A stretch of 64,000 bases of DNA from Gemmatimonadota bacterium (GTDB lineage: Bacteria; Gemmatimonadota; Gemmatimonadetes; Longimicrobiales; Gaopeijiaceae): positions 2,208,001 to 2,272,000 of the forward strand of contig JAXHMG010000003.1 in the NCBI GenBank assembly GCA_034521595.1, in the 5' to 3' direction. The position numbers were made by a program, and so were the translations under genes. How positions within the stretch are numbered: position 1 is the stretch's first letter; each line of letters opens with the position of its first letter. Shown one piece after another: positions 42,600 to 51,661 of the stretch. Under the pieces are notes generated by a model. The model did no database searches. It was not told the origin of the DNA and saw only the letters and a program-made list of their open reading frames with translations.

Positions 42600-43351
42600 C
42601 GGTACTCCGGGTTCGGATGATCGAAACGGCACCCGGCCTCCCAGGCCGAACGCTGATTCCCGTGCGCCGGGATCCCACCTCGTTCCCGTAGCATGAGCGC
42701 CATATGCATCAGGTTCCAGGTCATGAAGGTCGTGTTCCTGTTGGTGAACTCGTTCTCCGGCCCCCCCGACTCCGGGTCGAGATAGGACGGGCCGGGGCCG
42801 GCTTCTCCGATCCAACCGGCGTCGGCCTGAGGAGGTATCACGTAGCCGAGGTGCTGCAACGAGTAGAGGATATTCATCGCGCAGTGCTTGACTCCGTCTT
42901 CGTTTCCGGTGACGAGGCAGCCCGCGACTCGACCGTAGTAGGCATACTGTCCGTGCTCGTTGAGGACGCCCGAGTAGCCGTAGAGCCGCTCGATCACCTT
43001 GCTGCAGACGGACGACTTCTCCCCGAGCCAGATGGGCGTGCCCAGCACCAGGATGTCGGCCGCCATGACCTTCTCTTGAAGCGTGGGCCACGCGTCGCGC
43101 GCCCAACCGTGCTCGGTCATGTCCGGGTAGACGCCGTACGCGATTTCGTGGTCCACGGCGCGTAGAACCTCCACCTCCACCCCTTGCTTGGCCATGATCG
43201 CCCCGGCCGTGTCGATGAGGCCGCGCGTATGGGACGTTCCGGGCGATGGCTTCAGCGTGCAGTTGATGAACAACGCGCGCAGCCCCGAAAAGTCGAGGTC
43301 GTGCGAAGTATGGTCCGAACGGGGCGTTGAAGTGTCTTGGCCACGACTCAT
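42596..43351 (-). CDS. Flavodoxin-like / NADPH-dependent FMN reductase family protein
   Basis: NCTLKPSP..SHT, ADILVLGTPIWLG and GNEDGVKH. Confidence 0.85.
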   Translation of the reverse strand: MSRGQDTSTPRSDHTSHDLDFSGLRALFINCTLKPSPGTSHTRGLIDTAGAIMAKQGVEVEVLRAVDHEIAYGVYPDMTEHGWARDAWPTLQEKVMAADILVLGTPIWLGEKSSVCSKVIERLYGYSGVLNEHGQYAYYGRVAGCLVTGNEDGVKHCAMNILYSLQHLGYVIPPQADAGWIGEAGPGPSYLDPESGGPENEFTNRNTTFMTWNLMHMALMLRERGGIPAHGNQRSAWEAGCRFDHPNPEYR

Positions 43352-43502
43352 GGCTGTTTCCTGTCTCGCAGTGGAATGGGACGAGCGACACCGTGCGGCG
43401 CGCCCACGGATGAACCGCCGGAGAGGCGTCCGGAGTTCCCCGACCCGACACGGGACGTCGCGAAGCTACCCGGCGGCCCGAGCCTCCGACGGCCGAGCTC
43501 CG

Positions 43503-43528
43503 GGAACCCGTCATGCGCTCAGCCGGTT
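43503..43528 (+). promoter_or_regulatory. Second candidate ECF promoter
   Basis: GGAAC-N18-GTT about 65 bp upstream of the second DUF3179 gene. Confidence 0.5.
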
Positions 43529-43594
43529 GGACGATCACAGCACACGGCGATCTCGAATCGCCAAGCATCCTCGCCCAGCCGGAGTCCAGCTTCC

Positions 43595-44707
43595 ATGCAC
43601 GAGCATCGTAGAACCCCGAAGGCCGCGCTCATTGCGACCGGCATCGTCATCGGACTCGGCGCCTGTTCCAGCGAGCCGGCGGTCAGGCCCTCCGGGTCTT
43701 CCCAGGCCCTCGAAGATCTGTCGTGTAGCGTTCCGGAATCGGAGATCTTCGTGGGCGCGTTCAGGGACGGCATCCCGGCGCTCACGGATCCCGAGATGCA
43801 GCTACCCGGATTCGAGGAAACGAGTCTCTGGCAAGATGACGACCGGGTGGTCGGAATGGTCCTCGGTGATCAGCCGATTGCCGTACCGCTCAACATCTTC
43901 TGGTGGCACGAGATCGTGAACCTCGACATGGATGGCTATTCGGTCGCGATCACGCACTGTCCGCTCACCGGTTCGAGTCTCGCATTCGACCGGGAACCTC
44001 AGGGCGGGGTCGAGTTCGGTGTGTCCGGACTTCTGTTCCGTAACAACCTCATGATGTACGACCGGACGGGCGAGAACGAATCGCTCTGGCCCCAGATGTC
44101 CCGCGGTGCGCGCTGCGGCCCGAAGGACGGCCAGGGGCTGGACATGCTCCCGGTCGTGGAGATGACCTACGGCAAGTGGCGGCGCATACACCCGAACACG
44201 CTCGTGGTCACGTCCGAAACCGGCTGGGATAGGGACTACTCATCGAACGGCTATCCGTACCGCGGATACGACGACCGATCGAATCCAGAGCTCCTCTTCC
44301 CGATCTCCGGAGACATCGACACACGCTTCCCACCCAAAGCCAGGGTGCTGGGCGTGCCTGAAGGCACCGGGGGCACGGCGTTTCTCTACTCCGAGCTGAA
44401 CCGCCTGGGAGACCGAGCGGTCGTAACCATGGAATCCGCGAACGAAGACTACGTCGTCTTCTGGGACGAAGAGGCGTGGGGCGCCATGGCATACCATCCG
44501 ACGGTCGACGGACAGCCTCTGACGTTCGAGGTCAGGAGCGAGAAGATCGTCGACGAAGAGACCGGCTCCACCTGGAACATGTCTGGACAGGCGACCGGCG
44601 GCGAGCTCGCCGGAAGTCGGCTCGAGCCGATCGACGAGGCGTACGTCGCCTTCTGGTTCGCATGGCCGCTGTTCCAACCCGACATTCAAGTATGGAGCGC
44701 ATCATGA
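43595..44707 (+). CDS. DUF3179 domain lipoprotein (CxxT variant)
   Basis: LGAC lipobox; DGIPALTDP, WHEIVN, THCPLTGS, FGVSGLL, MYDR and FWFAW. Confidence 0.85.
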   Translation: MHEHRRTPKAALIATGIVIGLGACSSEPAVRPSGSSQALEDLSCSVPESEIFVGAFRDGIPALTDPEMQLPGFEETSLWQDDDRVVGMVLGDQPIAVPLNIFWWHEIVNLDMDGYSVAITHCPLTGSSLAFDREPQGGVEFGVSGLLFRNNLMMYDRTGENESLWPQMSRGARCGPKDGQGLDMLPVVEMTYGKWRRIHPNTLVVTSETGWDRDYSSNGYPYRGYDDRSNPELLFPISGDIDTRFPPKARVLGVPEGTGGTAFLYSELNRLGDRAVVTMESANEDYVVFWDEEAWGAMAYHPTVDGQPLTFEVRSEKIVDEETGSTWNMSGQATGGELAGSRLEPIDEAYVAFWFAWPLFQPDIQVWSAS

Positions 44708-45615
44708 GCAAGAAGCTTGGCAACCGGTTCACCATCGCTGCGAGCATCGTCGCGGCCGCGGCACTCTTCCCGACCACGACCGAGGCCCAAGCGATCTGCA
44801 GCGCACCGCACTCGTCACCCACGCTGAGCGAGAGCGCCTCGATACGGACGTTGCCGTCCGGGGAGGGCTGGGTTCAACTCTCGACATCCTTCACCACGGC
44901 GACGGAATCGTTCAATCCGACCGGGGACCGCCAGGACTTCCTCGGTGGCTCGACGTTCGACACCCGGTCGGCCTTCCTCACCGCCTCGTACGGTGTGACG
45001 CGCGGATTGGAGATTTGGGGCCAGGTCCCGGTTCACCGTCTTCGCACGGAAGGGGGTAACGGAGGTGTGAGCCGCTCCACGGGGCTCGGTGACATCCGGA
45101 CGGCGGTCCGCGTGAGCCCGGCCCTGGTCGGAGTCGAAGCCCCCGTCGCCCTCCGGCTCGGATACAAGCAACCCGGAAGCGACTTCCCGATCGACGCGAC
45201 GGAGCTGCCCCTTACCGAGGGTCAACGCGATGTCGAGGTGAGCGTCGAATCGGGGTGGGCACCGGTTGAGTCGCCCTTCTACGTGTCGGGTTGGGCCGGG
45301 TACCGCTGGCGATCCGAGAACACGGACACCGAGCACCAGCCCGGAGACGAGGTCTTCGCGCACCTGGCCATAGGCGGCACGCTCGGCGTGCTGGGTTGGG
45401 AGCTCGGCGTGGACGGCCTCTGGGGCGGAACTCCCGTGGATCAGGGCCTCCGGCTCTCGAGCCAGGACCGCCAGTTGATACAGATCGTGCCCACGATCGC
45501 CTCGTTCGTCGGGCCGGGGAATCTCGAGATCACGGCTCCGATCCCGGTGTCGGGCCGCAACCTTCCAGCCAGCTACGGGCTGAGCGTCGGATACCGTATC
45601 GGCTGGGGACGGTGA
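44704..45615 (+). CDS. Putative outer-membrane beta-barrel channel
   Basis: Signal peptide, alternating beta-strands, STGLGDI and C-terminal GLSVGYRIGW. Confidence 0.65.
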   Translation: MSKKLGNRFTIAASIVAAAALFPTTTEAQAICSAPHSSPTLSESASIRTLPSGEGWVQLSTSFTTATESFNPTGDRQDFLGGSTFDTRSAFLTASYGVTRGLEIWGQVPVHRLRTEGGNGGVSRSTGLGDIRTAVRVSPALVGVEAPVALRLGYKQPGSDFPIDATELPLTEGQRDVEVSVESGWAPVESPFYVSGWAGYRWRSENTDTEHQPGDEVFAHLAIGGTLGVLGWELGVDGLWGGTPVDQGLRLSSQDRQLIQIVPTIASFVGPGNLEITAPIPVSGRNLPASYGLSVGYRIGWGR

Positions 45616-45622
45616 CGAAACG

Positions 45623-46271
45623 ATGAGCGAACGGACCCACACCCACCCTTCTGTCGGCAGGATCCCGGGAGTCGTTGCGCTCCTGGGCGTCCTGTTGCTC
45701 GGGGGGACGACCGTCGGCACGGCGCAGGAGCAGGAGGCGCATCTGGACGGAATCGGACACGAGCTCGGTGATCCCGAGGCGCCAGTCGTTCGTCGTCGAG
45801 TACGGCGACTTCGCCTGTGGGGCTTGTGCCCAGTTCGTCGCCGGAGCTTGGCCCGAGATCCGGGAAAAGTTCATCGAGACCGGCAAGGTCCGCTGGAAGA
45901 CCGTCCCCTTCGAGCTCGGCTTTCCGAACAGCGGAGAAGGAGCGCATGCCGGCGAGTGCGCGGCCGCCCAGGGAATGTTCTGGGAGATGCACGACGCGCT
46001 CTACGAACAGAGAGAGATGTGGGTGGGCGAGCGCGATCCCGAGGACGAGTTGGTTGATTTGGCGGGAACGACGGGGCTCGACGAAGCGCTGTTCCGCAAA
46101 TGTTACCAAGACGAGCACTACGAGGACCGCATCGACGCAGCCAACGACGCGGCGGACACCGACGGAGTCCGGGGAACCCCGACGTTCTACATCAACGGGT
46201 TCCAGGTCCAAGGAGCGCTTCCCATCGACGCCTTCCGAACCTTGCTCGAAGATGCGTCTCCCCGACGCTGA
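45623..46271 (+). pseudogene. DsbA/Thioredoxin_4 family protein with one frameshift
   Basis: Signal peptide plus LGDPEAPV, then +1 shift at ~45790 into VVEYGDFACGAC...FWEMHD...GVRGTPTFYING. Confidence 0.8.
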
Positions 46272-46665
46272 CGGATCCGCCGGCGCGACCAGCCGGAGCC
46301 GGCCCGCGCTCGCGGCACTGGCGCTGGGGCTCACCGTGCTGGCCTGCTCGAACGGGGCCACGGCGCCACCTCCGGACGGAGGGGCGGATCTCGATGAGGG
46401 AGAGGCCGCTACCCGGGTCGAGGTCATGACCGTCACGGCCGGGGCGGACGGCTCCGCCTCCGTCGGCCTTCCGGAGCATCTGGGCACATCGGAAGCTCCA
46501 CCGAACGTCGTCTGCAGCTATACGCCGGATGGGAAGAAATGGTGGATCGCGTTCGGCGATACTGCCTGTCGCCTCGAACCGGCGGGAGACGGGACGTTGC
46601 GAGTCACGATCGAGGGACTTTCCGAAGGATGGTCGATCCGGATCGAGGTACATCCGCCCGGTTGA
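46252..46665 (+). CDS. Hypothetical lipoprotein
   Basis: Hydrophobic helix ending VLAC; small beta-rich domain with two Cys. Confidence 0.6.
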   Translation: MRLPDADGSAGATSRSRPALAALALGLTVLACSNGATAPPPDGGADLDEGEAATRVEVMTVTAGADGSASVGLPEHLGTSEAPPNVVCSYTPDGKKWWIAFGDTACRLEPAGDGTLRVTIEGLSEGWSIRIEVHPPG

Positions 46666-46711
46666 CGATGTCGGCGGGCGCCGACCCCGCTACGGCGTCT
46701 AGCAGCCGCGT

Positions 46712-46930
46712 GCCGGAATCGAACTCGGGGGCAACGTCGCGTTCATCCACAACCAGCTCGACCTCCCGAGGGGCGATGCCGATCTGGAGGAGGTACTCCT
46801 CGGACGCCGCCAGCTCGAGACCAACTTTCAGGCCGGTCTCAGCCTCGGGTTCCGCTACCGCTTCGGCTCGATCTACAACAACATCGCGAACACGCGCTTC
46901 GGCGGAGGTGGGTCGCAGGATCGGTTCTGA
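46712..46930 (+). pseudogene. 3' remnant of an outer-membrane protein gene
   Basis: IHNQLDLPRGDADLEEVLLGRRQLETNFQAGLSLGFRYRFGSIYNNIANTRF; frame closed upstream by TAG at 46700, no start. Confidence 0.6.
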
Positions 46931-47108
46931 GGCCGCGAACGCTTAGCCATCGAAACGGTCGTGGAGGTAGGTGACGACGGAAACCGGGACCCGAGAGGAT
47001 GAACCGTCGAGAGCCCCGGTTGCGCACGGGCAATCCGTTTCGTCCATTGCGTACCGGCCGCCTCGGCAGCCCTCGCATCCAAGCCTCCCGCTCACGGAGT
47101 GACCGCGC

Positions 47109-47489
47109 ATGAGACCGATGACCTCGATTCTGGCCGTGACCGCCCTGTTCTTCGCCACCGATGATGTTCAGGCGCAGGAGGCGCACGCGAGCGACTACGA
47201 GGCCGAGCTTCGGGAGATGGTCGCCGAGCCCGATCCGGCCGAGCGGGACCGCGAGGTGGTTCGCGACTTCCTGGACCGCTCCGACGTGGCCGACGTCGTC
47301 GCGGAGCACGGGCTCGACCGGGAGCGACTCGAGGCCGGTGTGAGCACCCTCGATGCGGACGCCGCTGCCGATCTCGCCCGCCAGGTACGGAGCATGGGCG
47401 AGGAAGCCGAGCTGGTCGGCGGCAACACCGTCGTGCTGTCCACGAGCACCATCGTCATCATCCTCCTGATCCTCATTCTCGTGACGTGA
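47109..47489 (+). CDS. PA2779-like secreted protein with Gly-Gly and a hydrophobic C-terminal tail
   Basis: Signal peptide, acidic helical body (VRDFLDRSDV...GLD...VSTL) and LVGG-NTVVLSTSTIVIILLILILVT. Confidence 0.75.
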   Translation: MRPMTSILAVTALFFATDDVQAQEAHASDYEAELREMVAEPDPAERDREVVRDFLDRSDVADVVAEHGLDRERLEAGVSTLDADAAADLARQVRSMGEEAELVGGNTVVLSTSTIVIILLILILVT

Positions 47490-49453
47490 CCGCAGCCGCC
47501 ATCGCCGTCCTGCTGGGCCTTTCGAGTGCCGGACAGCCGGCATGGACGGACGCGCCGGCAGCCGATCACCCCGACGGCGTGGACATCGAGGTGCCGTTCG
47601 TGGCCCAGGGTCCGCTCCTCTGCGGCGGCGCGGCGGCGGCGATGGTGGAACGGTTCTGGGGCGTCCGGGGCGTGTACGGGGAAGACTTCCGCCATCTCGT
47701 CCGGGAGGACGAGGGAGGGATCCGGGCGTCGGAGCTGACCACGGCGCTGGAGCAGCGCGGGTACGACGTGCACGTCTCGCAGGCACGGCCGGACCGGATC
47801 CTGGCGGGGCTGGAAGACGGGATCCCGCCGATCCTCCTTCTGGAGTCGGGCGCCACCCGTCTGCACTACGTCGTTCTCGTAGGGCTGGACGACGAGGTCG
47901 CCTGGATCCACGACCCGAACTTCGGGCCCTCGCAGGAGATCGCGCGGGACGAGCTGCTCCGGCGTTGGCGTGCGTCCGGGTTCTGGGCCGCCCACGTGGT
48001 GCCGTCGCGCTCGGCGCCCGACGAAACGGACCCGTCACGCCCGTCACCTCGCGCCCGAAGCCTGGACCCACTCGCGGACGCCGCGGCCGAATCGGCCATG
48101 GAGCGGATCCGCTCCGGCGATTTCGAAGAGGCACGCGCCACGGCCGGCACGCTGATGTCGGCGGGGGAGGACGAGGCCGCGCTCGGCCGGCGCCTGCGGG
48201 CCACCGCCTGGTTTCTGGAAGGGGAGCGGACCCGCGCCCTGGAAGAGTGGAACGTCCTGGGCGAGCCCACCCTGGATCTGGTGCGTATTCGCGGGATGGA
48301 GCACACCCGCTACCAGGTCGCCGAGCGCCGCTTGTCGCTCGAGTACGGCGACGTGCTCACCCCCGCGTCCCTCGCATTGGCACGGCGCCGGCTCGAGGCT
48401 CTCCCATCCGTCGCGGCGTCCCGCGTCGACTACCGTCCCGTGGTGGACGGCACGGTGGAGATCGACGCAGCCGTCCTGGAGCGCGCTCGCGTGCCCGGAT
48501 ACGCGACGTTGGCGGCCCAGGTGCCGCGGGGACTTCTGAACCAGCGGACAGCCCTCGAGGTCGGGCCTCTGCTGGCCGGAGGCGACCGCTGGCGGGTCTC
48601 CGGAAGCTGGGCGCCCGCACAACGTTACGTCGGAGGATCGATGTCCGCTCCGGCCCCTCCGTTGCCCGGGATCGCGGCCGTGCGCATGGAGTGGCGCCGG
48701 GAGCGGTTCGCGACCTCGGGTGGCGGGGCGAGCTCGCCCACGGAGACGGAGTATCGGTTTCGGGGCGCGCTGGAGCTCCAGGAGTGGATGCATCGTCGTC
48801 TGCGTCTCGGCGCGAGCCTGGCCCTCGAATCCTGGGACGTCCCGGCCTGGACCGTGGATGCCGCGCACGCTCCGCTGCGTCTCCTGAACGCGGGACTCCA
48901 GGCCACCGTGGCGAATCCCGACGGCCCCACGTGGCTCACCGCGCGGGGAGAGGGCTGGATGGGCTCCGGACATTCGTTCGCTCGGACGAGCCTGGAGGCT
49001 GGGACGAGCGTTCCGCAGGGTGCGCGGCGGGAGTGGCGCCTCCGTGCGGGCGGGACCGCGGTGACCCGCCGGGCGCCGCGCATGATCTGGCCGGGCGCAG
49101 GAGCCGGTCGTACGCGCGCCCCTCTGCTCCGCGCGCACCGCCTGATCGAGGACGACGTGATCCAGGGACCGGCGTTCGGGCGAGCGCTTCTGCACGCGAC
49201 CGCCGAGCACCGGATCTTCGGCCGGGTCGGCCCCGTCCGCATGGGCGGGAGCCTGTTCGTCGATGCCGTCCACGCGGGATCTCGGGCACACGGAGCCGAC
49301 AGTCGGGGCTTCGTAGACGTCGGCCTGGGAGTCTTCGTCGATGCGGGATCCGACGAGGTCACGGTGAGCCTCGCGCGGGGCTCCTCGGGATGGCACCTCT
49401 CCGCACAGGTCGAGGAACGATTTCCAACGGGACTCGGCCCGCAGCCGAACTGA
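47486..49453 (+). CDS. C39-like (PA2778-type) cysteine peptidase fused to TPR, POTRA and an Omp85-like beta-barrel
   Basis: VPFVAQGPLLCG, HYVVLVG and IHDP triad; POTRA-like LVRIRG...RRRLEAL...VLER; strand-rich C-terminus with LRAH and FVDA. Confidence 0.75.
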   Translation: MTAAAIAVLLGLSSAGQPAWTDAPAADHPDGVDIEVPFVAQGPLLCGGAAAAMVERFWGVRGVYGEDFRHLVREDEGGIRASELTTALEQRGYDVHVSQARPDRILAGLEDGIPPILLLESGATRLHYVVLVGLDDEVAWIHDPNFGPSQEIARDELLRRWRASGFWAAHVVPSRSAPDETDPSRPSPRARSLDPLADAAAESAMERIRSGDFEEARATAGTLMSAGEDEAALGRRLRATAWFLEGERTRALEEWNVLGEPTLDLVRIRGMEHTRYQVAERRLSLEYGDVLTPASLALARRRLEALPSVAASRVDYRPVVDGTVEIDAAVLERARVPGYATLAAQVPRGLLNQRTALEVGPLLAGGDRWRVSGSWAPAQRYVGGSMSAPAPPLPGIAAVRMEWRRERFATSGGGASSPTETEYRFRGALELQEWMHRRLRLGASLALESWDVPAWTVDAAHAPLRLLNAGLQATVANPDGPTWLTARGEGWMGSGHSFARTSLEAGTSVPQGARREWRLRAGGTAVTRRAPRMIWPGAGAGRTRAPLLRAHRLIEDDVIQGPAFGRALLHATAEHRIFGRVGPVRMGGSLFVDAVHAGSRAHGADSRGFVDVGLGVFVDAGSDEVTVSLARGSSGWHLSAQVEERFPTGLGPQPN

Positions 49454-49494
49454 CACGGGATCCTCCTTCGGTCGCTTGGCTCGGCCTCGGGCTG

Positions 49495-50799
49495 CTAGAG
49501 CAGGCCGGCGAGCATCGTGGCGATCCCCAGGAAGCTCGCGAACCCGACGATGTCGGTGACGGTCGTCAGCACGATCGAGGACGACTGCGCGGGGTCCTGC
49601 CCGAGCATCGTCAGCATCGTGGGGATGAGCACCCCCGCGATTCCCGCGGCCACCATGGACAGCACCATCGAGACACCGATCACCAGCGCGAGCCCCACCG
49701 ATCGGCTCCAGACGTAGACACCGGCGGCGGTGGTGAGCGACACGGCCACCCCATTCAGCAGCCCGACCGTCGCCTCCTTGCGCAAGAGCCGCGGCCATTG
49801 ACCGATGCGGATCTCCCGCATGGCCAGCCCGCGCATCGTAACGGCCAGCGCCTGCGCGCCCGTGTTACCCGACTGCCCCGCCACGACGGGCAGCAGCACG
49901 GCGAGCGCGGTGAAGCGCGCGATGGTGTCCTCGAAGATCCCGACCACGGATGCGGCCAGGAACGCCGTCACGAGGTTGATTTCGAGCCAAGGCAGGCGCT
50001 TCTTGACCGCGAACAACACCGGTGACAGCGCGCGCTCCTGTCGGCTGGCGCCCACCATGGTCTGCATATCGGCGGCGACGTCCTCCTGCGCCGTCAGGGC
50101 AAGGGTATCGGCGCGGATGACGCCGAGCAGACGCCCCTCGAAATCCACCACCGGCAGGCTCGAAAGCCGCCTCTTGCTGAAGTGCTCGACGACCTCCTCC
50201 TGAGGATCGATCGCCTGCACCGCGACCGCAGGCTGGGCGAGCGTCTCCACGACCGCGTCGGATGAGGCGGCGGCCAGTGCTTGCAGCGGAACGGTTCCCG
50301 TCAGGCGTCGCTCCGAATCGATCAGGAAGACGTCGGCGACTCGGCGCTTCCGCACGGCACGCAGGCGGTCGAGCGCCTGTTGCACCGTGGTTCCCGGGGC
50401 GAGACCGATCGCGCGCGGGTCCATGAGCCGTCCCGCCGTTTCGGGCGGGTAGTCGGCCATCATCCGCAGCTCGCGGGCGAGCGAGGGGGCGAGGCGGTCG
50501 AGCAACGCGGCCCGCGCCGCTTCGTCCATCCAACCGAGCACGGAGACGGCTCGGACGGGGTCCATCGTGGCCACGACATCACGCCGGGAGTCTTCCGAGA
50601 GCGCGCCGAGAACGTCCACGGCGAGGTGCGGAGGCAGGTGCTCCAGCAGAGGAACGGCGTGTCGCGTGGGCTCGGTGCTCAGAACGCCCGCGATCTCGTG
50701 CGCCGGAAGCTCGTCGAGGCGGTCCGCCGCCTCCTCGGGAAACTCGCGGATGAAGGTCCCCGCCAACTCTTGAAACCCCGCGGGTGGCTCATTCCGCAT
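49495..50799 (-). CDS. mgtE: Magnesium transporter MgtE
   Basis: N domain, CBS pair (ETAGRLM), RLPWL, GNTGAQ, DPAQSS and TTVTDIVG. Confidence 0.93.
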   Translation of the reverse strand: MRNEPPAGFQELAGTFIREFPEEAADRLDELPAHEIAGVLSTEPTRHAVPLLEHLPPHLAVDVLGALSEDSRRDVVATMDPVRAVSVLGWMDEAARAALLDRLAPSLARELRMMADYPPETAGRLMDPRAIGLAPGTTVQQALDRLRAVRKRRVADVFLIDSERRLTGTVPLQALAAASSDAVVETLAQPAVAVQAIDPQEEVVEHFSKRRLSSLPVVDFEGRLLGVIRADTLALTAQEDVAADMQTMVGASRQERALSPVLFAVKKRLPWLEINLVTAFLAASVVGIFEDTIARFTALAVLLPVVAGQSGNTGAQALAVTMRGLAMREIRIGQWPRLLRKEATVGLLNGVAVSLTTAAGVYVWSRSVGLALVIGVSMVLSMVAAGIAGVLIPTMLTMLGQDPAQSSSIVLTTVTDIVGFASFLGIATMLAGLL

Positions 50800-51661
50800 G
50801 CGTCACCTCGTCTCCCGATTCGATAGGGCGGTCGAGACCCCGGCCGACGGACGCCGTCCCGGAGATGGCAGCGACGATCCCGGTGGTTCCGAGTTGGAAG
50901 ATCTCCGCGAGCGCCTTCGCGGTGAGCCGCGCAGAATCGCCCCCCTGGTCGGGAGCTTGCCTTTCGAGCTTGCGCAACACCTGGTAGCGGATGGCGCCCA
51001 CCAGCCGATCCTCGTCGTCGACGACCGGCATGGCATGGTAGCGCTGCCAGCCGGGGTGCTCCCGCACGATCGCGGCCGGCAGCCACGCGCTGAGGCGATC
51101 GACGTCGCGGTGCATGACGGCGCTGACCGGATCGCGCGCCCGGGCCAGCATCAGCTCGGGAATGTCGAGCACGCCGACGAGCCGGTTGTCGCGGTCGACG
51201 ACGTAGAGATAGTAGAGGAGATCCCGAGCGGCCCGACCGAGGCGGACGCGCGCATCCGCCACGAGCACGTCGTGGGGGAGCCGGAAGATCGTCGGGTCCA
51301 TCACCGCGCCGGCGGTGCCCTCGAGGTAGGAAAGCACGCGCGTGATCGGCTCGCGTACGTCCGCGGGAAGACCGGCCAACAGAGGCTCACGCCACGCGGC
51401 CCCGAGCCCCCGCACGATCGCGCCCGCTTCGTTCGCGGTCAGCTCCGCGACGATCGCGGCCCCGTCCGGAACCGAAAGATGCTCGAGACAATCGGATGCG
51501 CTCGGCACCGTCATTTCGCGCAGCACCGCCGCGGCCGAAGGCTCCGGAACGGCACGCAATACCGTAGCGGCCGTCGGCGCCGGCATCTGCTCGAGCTTCC
51601 GTGCGGCCCGACGAGGGTGCGACTCCAGGAACGCGCGGGCGAGGAGGTCGACCCCGATCAC
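50789..51661 (-). CDS. Soluble MgtE-like N-domain plus CBS protein (no TM domain)
   Basis: GTAGAVM, YYLYVVD...LVGVL and MPVVDDEDRLVGAI; lacks the MgtE TM helices. Confidence 0.8.
   Translation of the reverse strand: MIGVDLLARAFLESHPRRAARKLEQMPAPTAATVLRAVPEPSAAAVLREMTVPSASDCLEHLSVPDGAAIVAELTANEAGAIVRGLGAAWREPLLAGLPADVREPITRVLSYLEGTAGAVMDPTIFRLPHDVLVADARVRLGRAARDLLYYLYVVDRDNRLVGVLDIPELMLARARDPVSAVMHRDVDRLSAWLPAAIVREHPGWQRYHAMPVVDDEDRLVGAIRYQVLRKLERQAPDQGGDSARLTAKALAEIFQLGTTGIVAAISGTASVGRGLDRPIESGDEVTHAE

Follow-up and report, generated by a model that had tools for sequence, protein, structure and literature searches.

A C39 peptidase fused to an Omp85-type barrel and its small tail-anchored partner: a candidate dock-and-cut module of the cell envelope

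Bacterial and organellar outer membranes are built and crossed by machinery with Omp85 proteins at its core; hallmarks of these proteins are a loop-6 arginine motif of the VRGF/Y type and a motif of the F-x-D-x-G type. In the GlyGly-CTERM/rhombosortase system, a short motif and a membrane-spanning segment at the extreme C-terminus are served by a dedicated processing enzyme. Here we describe a gene pair at positions 47109 to 49453 of a 64,000-nucleotide stretch from a Gemmatimonadota bacterium (GCA_034521595.1, contig JAXHMG010000003.1, positions 2,208,001 to 2,272,000 of the forward strand; this whole stretch is hereafter the window). The first gene (gene 1) encodes a small protein with a double-glycine motif and a hydrophobic C-terminal tail, and the second (gene 2) a 655-residue protein in which a C39 peptidase, TPR-like helices, a single POTRA domain and an Omp85-type barrel are predicted in one chain. 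What is new here is the modularity of this system, a Gly-Gly motif that tracks the peptidase, and the predicted docking of the gene 1 body on the TPR-POTRA part of gene 2. We give an even chance to the reading that the pair serves the cell envelope as a dedicated dock-and-cut module, in which TPR-POTRA would capture a partner anchored in the inner membrane and C39 would free it after Gly-Gly; this model is favoured because of the anchor-like layout that follows the motif, together with the docking result.

The PA2778 and PA2779 families, to which the two proteins show distant similarity, are themselves uncharacterised. In the available part of one paper, PA2779 is a hypothetical gene beside bswR (PMC3985676); PA2778 is named as a putative C39 protein by a transposon screen in Pseudomonas aeruginosa and, in the sections of that preprint available to us, is not followed up (bioRxiv 10.1101/733030). 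The 2014 survey of the Omp85 superfamily distinguishes ten subfamilies, none of which, in the accessible portion of the article, has a peptidase fusion (PMC4104836), and four of its supplementary files hold no C39, PF03412, PF13529 or Peptidase entries. A review of papain-like peptidases, in the portion available, places C39 only alongside ATP-binding cassette (ABC) transporters. An earlier note on this DNA, made from the sequence without database searches, had pointed out the gene pair and knew of no description of such a fusion; the literature that we searched likewise described neither a C39-Omp85 fusion nor the three-gene unit presented below, and mentioned PA2778/PA2779 only in passing.

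Architecture of the gene pair

The features of the module, in window positions, are as follows.

47109..47489, + strand: gene 1, 126-residue PA2779-like tail-anchored small protein (open reading frame, ATG start, stop codon included)
47109..47177, + strand: putative signal peptide of gene 1, residues 1-23, ending VQA/Q (read from the sequence)
47178..47411, + strand: helical, presumably periplasmic body of gene 1, residues 24-101 (AlphaFold2 helices; predicted interface with gene 2)
47412..47423, + strand: L-V-G-G motif of gene 1, residues 102-105, with a putative C39 cleavage site after G105 (conservation)
47424..47486, + strand: hydrophobic C-terminal tail of gene 1, residues 106-126, putative inner-membrane anchor (conservation, predicted helix)
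47486..49453, + strand: gene 2, 655-residue C39-TPR-POTRA-Omp85 fusion (open reading frame, GTG start, stop codon included)
47588..48010, + strand: C39 papain-like peptidase, residues 35-175 of gene 2 (PF03412, PF13529; Cys46 codon at 47621-47623)
48068..48256, + strand: TPR-like helical region, residues 195-257 of gene 2 (four helices in the model; TPR part of NF033920)
48269..48481, + strand: single POTRA domain, residues 262-332 of gene 2 (beta-alpha-alpha-beta-beta; aligned with POTRA3 of TamA and POTRA5 of BamA)
48545..49417, + strand: Omp85-type beta-barrel, residues 354-644 of gene 2 (structural alignment; loop-6-like LLRAH, and FVDA on a later strand)

The translational overlap of the two genes that the earlier note had reported is real: the letters GTGA at 47486-47489 belong to both, gene 1 ending in CTC GTG ACG TGA and gene 2 opening with GTG ACC, and this GTG is the earliest possible start of the gene 2 frame. 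The remainder of that note's description of the two proteins also stood up to analysis, both for gene 1 (a Sec signal, here a probable one, an acidic helical body, LVGG and a 21-residue hydrophobic tail) and for gene 2 (a Q-x4-C/H/D triad and a predicted structure with C39, TPR-like helices, POTRA and Omp85 barrel), as detailed below.

The C-terminal end of gene 1 reads AELVGG-NTVVLSTSTIVIILLILILVT-stop, so that a hydrophobic stretch of 21 residues closes the protein. At the other end, an N-terminal hydrophobic stretch was present in all relatives of gene 1 examined, and the A22-Q23 pair at the putative signal peptide boundary was retained in most of the 75 aligned relatives (A in 69, Q in 67). 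Gene 1 matched the PA2779 family model NF033919 at 36.6 bits (E 4.3e-9), below the curated cut-off of 40, and all 74 of 74 aligned relatives matched the same model at E<=0.001 (best 8.8e-15); a profile search found one gene 1 copy in this genome. Modelled alone with AlphaFold2, gene 1 reached a mean predicted local distance difference test score (pLDDT) of 69.1, with helices at residues 30-37, 43-55, 58-66, 71-79 and 83-102; the long helix 83-102 leads into LVGG, which is followed by a break and then by a helix at 112-125. No PDB fold resembled the model at E<=0.001 (Foldseek).

Across the 75 relatives the tail is 21-26 residues long, and its columns form the best-conserved segment of gene 1. 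A tail profile searched against the 32,284 six-frame open reading frames of at least 60 residues in the genome gave one match (E 7e-10), the next standing at E 6.4; we therefore rejected the idea that LVGG plus tail is a general sorting signal, as a single open reading frame in the genome carries the tail. Strong acidity was likewise rejected as a trait of the family: the body has a net charge of -15 here, against a median of -3 in the 75 relatives. The two sequencing runs that hold most of the stretch are labelled as salt pan metagenome, and the acidity of gene 1 may be salt adaptation instead of a matter of function.

In gene 2, residues 46-161 match PF03412 at 31.6 bits (cut-off 22) and the protein also matches PF13529 at 28.9 bits (cut-off 24). 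Residues 35-249, the C39 and TPR part, match the PA2778 family model NF033920 at 32 bits (E 8e-8) and do not reach its cut-off of 150; on these scores gene 2 is a distant relative of NF033920 and, by the curated rule, not a member. The catalytic set comprises Q41-x4-C46, H127 and D143, of which C46, H127 and D143 are invariant and Q41 is conserved in at least 90% of 67 homologues, and the Cys, His and Asp positions align with those of the ComA peptidase domain. PF03412 was matched by 63 of the 67 homologues at E<=0.001. Pfam detected no ABC transporter domains in gene 2, the C-terminal part of which is predicted to be POTRA and Omp85 barrel.

An AlphaFold2 model built on the alignment of these 67 homologues was of high confidence (pLDDT 90.8; predicted template modelling score, pTM, 0.88). 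It places an alpha/beta domain at residues 35-175, a low-confidence linker, four helices at 195-257, the POTRA domain at 262-332, a further helix at 339-352 and the barrel at 354-644, with approximately 15-16 strands (DSSP counts 15 with at least three residues). Foldseek related the model to BamA and TamA at E about 2e-13. In structural alignments with VIA-align, residues 251-648 superposed on POTRA3 and the barrel of TamA with Z 23.5 (root-mean-square deviation, rmsd, 5.0; 354 residues aligned) and the barrel alone on that of TamA with Z 23.1 (rmsd 3.4; 276 residues aligned), followed by BamA barrels (Z about 21-22), FhaC (Z 20.7) and Sam50 (Z 19.5). Within the barrel, L548 and R549 of the LLRAH motif are invariant among the 67 homologues, as is F591 of FVDA, and D593 is conserved in at least 90%; both motifs also align in a distant homologue. 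As modelled, gene 2 has the layout of an Omp85 protein, a POTRA domain followed by a barrel of the 16-strand type, the exact strand number being unsettled.

The Pfam model for this superfamily, PF01103, matched neither gene 2 nor its place in the genome; its cut-off was passed by four other Omp85 genes of the same genome, and it matched 5 of the 67 homologues of gene 2. TPR families of Pfam matched up to 12 of the 67. Public annotation of the relatives of gene 2 reads only 'C39 family peptidase' or 'papain-like cysteine protease': such genes are now labelled merely as peptidases because the standard domain models miss the barrel.

Linkage, modular forms and covariation of the Gly-Gly motif

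Scanning the species genome set gave 413 pattern matches, of which 373 encoded relatives, far beyond chance. We retained 80 loci, assigned by record titles to Gemmatimonadota (49), Acidobacteriota (26), Fibrobacteraceae (2), Eisenbacteria (1), a 'delta proteobacterium' (1) and an unclassified organism (1). The gene 1 profile identified the small gene directly upstream and on the same strand in 79 of 80 loci, the exception (L021) being a locus without upstream DNA, and at 70 of 74 loci a start for gene 2 lies between -14 and +42 nt from the gene 1 stop; the co-occurrence of the two genes, on which the earlier note had made its reading depend, is supported. A conserved third gene was rejected, no other family of open reading frames being found in more than 12 of the 80 loci. 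Raw tails showed GG and a hydrophobic end in 77 of 79 loci, the two aberrant ones (L027 and L068) probably reflecting a frame problem. The gene 1 alignment leaves out these two as well as L021, L049 (short start), L037 and L052; the last two have no start codon of suitable length, yet their raw tails carry GG.

The Gly-Gly itself, on which the earlier note had based its proposal of cleavage, is conserved in 74-75 of the 75 aligned relatives (L102 in 68, G104 in 74, G105 in 75). The motif is built like a double-glycine site, with a hydrophobic residue at -4 and then G-G, after the predicted helix 83-102. In an alignment of the motif regions of all variants to the gene 1 profile, those with a linked C39 peptidase show the order hydrophobic, any residue, small residue, Gly: the window has LVGG, eight split loci have F-x-A-G and a ninth has RGG. 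Eight copies without a C39 partner, from seven genomes, instead read LRAR, LQSG, ADKG, FAVD, IGA, LGA, RSGI and LRTE; Gly-Gly was lost in seven of these eight, and the hydrophobic tail was retained in all eight. PF03412 was searched for in five of the seven genomes and was found in none of them. Two orphan copies that keep GG belong to genomes with a fused gene elsewhere, and five Acidobacteriota genomes with unpartnered A-G or A-G-G copies have one C39 gene each. This association between motif and peptidase is what a cleavage site would be expected to show, and it lends the proposed cut indirect support from sequence comparison.

In distant and split relatives, a polar linker follows the motif, then come approximately 20 hydrophobic residues and sometimes about 12 polar residues at the C-terminus. 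Such a layout favours a single-pass anchor in the inner membrane, not a conserved peptide product, as the probable role of the tail.

The system occurs in several packagings. The gene 1 profile recovered 2571 cluster representatives at E<=0.001, a number that fell to 787 at 1e-10. Among 301 sampled Gemmatimonadota genomes, gene 1 was present in 24 and gene 2 in 20, all 20 within the 24; four further Gemmatimonadota genomes accordingly hold the small gene only. Among 301 sampled Acidobacteriota genomes, gene 1 was found in 29, a tally that includes one genome flagged as unpublished (G354), on which no other result depends. Given this patchy occurrence across the sampled genomes, the module is an accessory unit. 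The 20 Gemmatimonadota genomes with gene 2 comprise 16 with the full fusion, one with the module in pieces (G045) and three without C39, whose partner proteins start at the TPR region and belong to three genera of the window's own family. In G045 (G045:C2:326917-329377), the match to the small gene is split in two and that to the fusion gene spreads over three frames, due to decay or assembly error.

Acidobacteriota, in turn, carry the parts as separate genes. Of 20 loci, nine are three-gene units, one (L123) has a C39-TPR protein without an adjacent barrel, one is cut by a contig end and nine are partnerless nearby. The three-gene unit consists of the small protein, a free C39 protein of about 190 residues and a separate TPR-POTRA-barrel protein of about 520-600 residues, and at these split loci the free C39 and barrel genes each bear their own N-terminal hydrophobic leader. 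The C39-TPR protein of L123, with no barrel adjoining, scores 106 bits against NF033920. One of the genomes without an adjacent partner has a free C39 gene followed by a gene for a 586-residue TPR protein, with the small-protein gene about 2 kb away; profile comparison identified the 586-residue protein as a homologue of the POTRA-barrel part (probability 98.9%, E 1.7e-17). Because of these split three-gene loci in Acidobacteriota, the fusion in the window is, as far as gene layout can tell, one packaging of a three-part system.

Several single loci showed other arrangements. At L097 (381-2914), a motif-less orphan small gene ends 4 nt before the gene for a STAS-MlaE permease, which is followed by an ABC ATPase gene; a link of this orphan to lipid transport is possible, having been seen once. 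At L098 (3-2834), an orphan that keeps Gly-Gly is followed by the gene for a 594-residue M48 peptidase, with a fused module on another contig of the genome. In three of three sampled genomes of one Gemmatimonadota family (L093, L094 and L095), a motif-less small gene precedes genes for an M19 dipeptidase and a transketolase, and in these genomes no Omp85 partner for the small gene was found. The free C39 protein at L116 (3383-3958, minus strand) also weakly matches NF050078, 'putative pilus system C39 family peptidase FilB', a second family of periplasmic C39 peptidases, at 27 bits against a cut-off of 475. A search for shorter relatives of gene 2 gave 28 matches, most of them truncated where a contig stops, with PA2778 of Pseudomonas not among them; a plasmid search with the C39-TPR part gave two weak matches in unrelated contexts.

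Predicted docking and the readings of the module

We predicted the complex of gene 2 residues 27-655 with gene 1 residues 24-126 in three runs, with controls. The interface score ipSAE was 0.65 in all three runs and 0.00 in the best control; 58 of 80 solved complexes attained this value, as did 2 of 110 mismatched pairs, counts that are only rough because our own alignments were used. The runs shared at least 86% of their contacts, with a partner pLDDT of at least 71. Confident contacts on gene 1 lay at residues 25-44 and 72-83, and their counterparts on gene 2 were residues 192-251 in the TPR-like region and 269-272 and 311-334 in the POTRA domain; no confident gene 1 contacts were named in the C39 domain or the barrel, where unnamed residues are to be read as uncertain. 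On the gene 1 side, conservation was 0.47 at the interface and 0.42 outside it. These models support binding of the gene 1 helical body to TPR-POTRA.

Combining docking with the motif pattern, the dock-and-cut reading would run as follows. Gene 1 would be exported by Sec, lose its signal peptide and remain tethered to the inner membrane through the hydrophobic segment at its C-terminus, its helical body of approximately 80 residues lying in the periplasm. Gene 2 would reside in the outer membrane as an Omp85 protein with a periplasmic arm of three modules, the TPR-like helices and POTRA domain of which are predicted to bind the gene 1 body; C39, placed beside TPR-POTRA on a flexible linker, would cut after Gly104-Gly105, where the long helix ends ahead of the anchor, as conservation and covariation with C39 suggest. 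The cut would free the body from the inner membrane, whereupon it might either stay on TPR-POTRA as a subunit of the barrel or cross the barrel to the surface as in two-partner secretion. We lean slightly towards retention as a subunit over export through the barrel.

A number of observations weigh against this model. Forms without C39 and with intact genes persist in three genera, so that the core function would not need cleavage, and one C39-less lineage, L091, still has S-G-G in its raw sequence. The genomes behind the covariation are related to one another and represent approximately 3 or 4 independent lineages; the independent events may therefore number perhaps three or four. No confident contact was named for gene 1 residues 100-126 (LVGG and the tail) near Cys46, in predictions whose unnamed residues are uncertain, an outcome that counts neither for nor against docking there, and on gene 2 the conservation of the interface (0.53) hardly differed from that of the rest of TPR-POTRA (0.51; permutation p 0.33). 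Finally, a peptidase tethered to the outer membrane would have to act on a site that lies within a few residues of the inner membrane, and the periplasmic parts look too short to span a periplasm of typical width; the cut may thus precede the arrival of gene 2 at the outer membrane, or the anchor may lie elsewhere.

Retention of the small gene, the tail and the TPR-POTRA-barrel partner in the C39-less, motif-less forms of three genera is also what we would expect if the essential element were a stable complex of the tail-anchored protein with TPR-POTRA, serving as a scaffold or tether (whether as an envelope contact, in assembly or by regulating the barrel), with C39 as an accessory for turnover or disengagement. 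Orphan tail-anchored copies in genomes without a partner, and docking predicted to be confined to the body and TPR-POTRA, would fit this scaffold as well. We consider it improbable, though worth keeping in view: where C39 is present, the triad is invariant and the motif nearly so, which argues for a cut under strong selection, and a body of approximately 80 residues plus TPR and POTRA looks, from domain sizes, too short to bridge two membranes. The strong conservation of the tail could instead mean that the body is a leader removed by C39 and the 21-26-residue hydrophobic peptide a cargo that the barrel inserts into, or passes across, the outer membrane. Known C39 systems do carry their cargo C-terminal to Gly-Gly, and the tail, the most conserved segment among close relatives (including an I-S-T-T stretch), is rich in beta-branched residues. 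However, split and distant relatives have a polar linker and a generic hydrophobic span, some with a polar C-terminal extension, and the C39-less forms keep the tail uncut; the predictions gave no confident contact between tail and barrel, which is not evidence of absence, and no periplasmic energy source or extractor that might pull the segment from the inner membrane appears to be encoded nearby. We therefore regard a cargo role of the tail as unlikely. The earlier note had preferred a closely similar version, a dedicated machine that clips the precursor at GG and inserts or exports the tail as an outer-membrane analogue of peptidase-containing ABC transporters. Clipping at GG gains indirect support from the decay of the motif where C39 is missing; insertion or export of the tail does not, as distant tails are ordinary membrane spans and the body, not the tail, is predicted to dock. 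Release of the soluble domain, which the same note had offered in brackets, fits better.

Two further readings assign the peptidase itself to the outside of the cell or to other cells. The order of an N-terminal enzyme, one POTRA domain and an Omp85-type barrel matches that given for PlpD in the available part of PMC4104836, and C39, with or without the TPR region, might accordingly be a passenger moved to the surface through its own barrel, as is the patatin of PlpD, to act outside the cell in type Vd-like autotransport. This is very unlikely in our view: at split loci a gene of its own, complete with a leader, encodes C39, while the TPR region remains joined to POTRA and barrel, the conserved Gly-Gly partner is predicted to be periplasmic and membrane-anchored, and the model packs the domains as one unit (pTM 0.88). 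The least credible reading takes the C39 protein as an antibacterial toxin and the small protein as its immunity factor. It draws on the available part of the transposon study, in which such a role was floated for PA2778 and PA2778 is among putative enzymes encoded upstream of small genes depleted for insertions when H1 type VI secretion is active (bioRxiv 10.1101/733030), and it is opposed by the Sec-type leaders of both proteins, the fusion of the peptidase to a resident outer-membrane barrel and the lack of secretion-system genes conserved nearby.

Under the dock-and-cut reading, the Omp85 superfamily would gain a subfamily that carries its own double-glycine peptidase and is matched one-to-one with a client, and the module would offer a concrete, testable function for the uncharacterised PA2778/PA2779 families; the fused, split, C39-less and motif-decayed variants are natural experimental controls. 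More speculatively, and with a rather low probability, the small protein, C39 and TPR-POTRA-Omp85 might together represent a new protease-gated branch of Omp85 sorting, present in a minority of Acidobacteriota and Gemmatimonadota genomes, in which a client is parked in the inner membrane, captured, released and passed through or onto the barrel.

Genomic neighbourhood and comparison with known systems

Upstream of the module in the window, at 43337-46665, lie genes for a DUF3179 protein, a small barrel-type protein (weak Phenol_MetA_deg match) and a DsbA-like thioredoxin, and a short open reading frame without a family match; none of the window's upstream neighbours was conserved beside the module at other loci. 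Downstream, on the opposite strand, are two genes at 49495-50799 (-) and 50789-51661 (-), one for an MgtE magnesium transporter; the gene that precedes and overlaps the MgtE gene has an MgtE N-domain and CBS only, with no membrane part. A scan of 46500-49700 detected no promoter and no terminator, with methods that may not cover the promoter type of this organism.

Among known systems, the PA2779/PA2778 pair (NF033919 and NF033920; Pfam DUF6627) shares the gene order, a small protein followed by a C39 protein. Both proteins of the window fall under the curated cut-offs (36.6 vs 40 and 32 vs 150 bits), and gene 2 carries, in addition, a POTRA domain and an Omp85 barrel. With the C39 domains of ABC transporters, such as ComA (PDB 8hf7), gene 2 shares the papain-like domain with its Gln, Cys, His and Asp; the partner, as in those systems, has a helix followed by Gly-Gly, with a hydrophobic residue at -4. 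Unlike that of ComA, the C39 domain of gene 2 is predicted to be periplasmic and Sec-exported, and it is fused to an Omp85 barrel instead of an ABC transporter; the putative site of gene 1 lies close to the C-terminus, ahead of a membrane anchor, whereas ComA-type substrates have theirs behind a short N-terminal leader.

TamA and BamA have in common with gene 2 the POTRA domain and the barrel of the 16-strand type, and gene 2 has a conserved arginine in a loop-6-like variant motif, with F-x-D on a strand further along. Gene 2 has a single POTRA, bears C39 and TPR at its N-terminus and is paired with one small dedicated protein in place of general clients or TamB. PlpD, the type Vd protein, also joins an enzyme, a single POTRA and an Omp85 barrel in one chain; the enzyme of gene 2 is a C39 peptidase with a TPR arm, not a patatin, and is separable in the split forms, where TPR stays with the barrel. 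GlyGly-CTERM/rhombosortase shares the layout of a motif and a C-terminal membrane-spanning segment with a dedicated enzyme, from which the present module differs in having one substrate per genome, a soluble-type cysteine peptidase and no basic cluster in the tail (the last residue of which is D, K, S, T or another across relatives). In two-partner secretion (FhaC/TpsB-TpsA), a dedicated Omp85-family protein is likewise encoded beside a single client, and here as there the POTRA region is predicted to bind the client; in contrast to those systems, gene 2 has one POTRA domain, not two, and a built-in protease, and gene 1 is a helical, tail-anchored protein of approximately 100 residues with no TPS domain.

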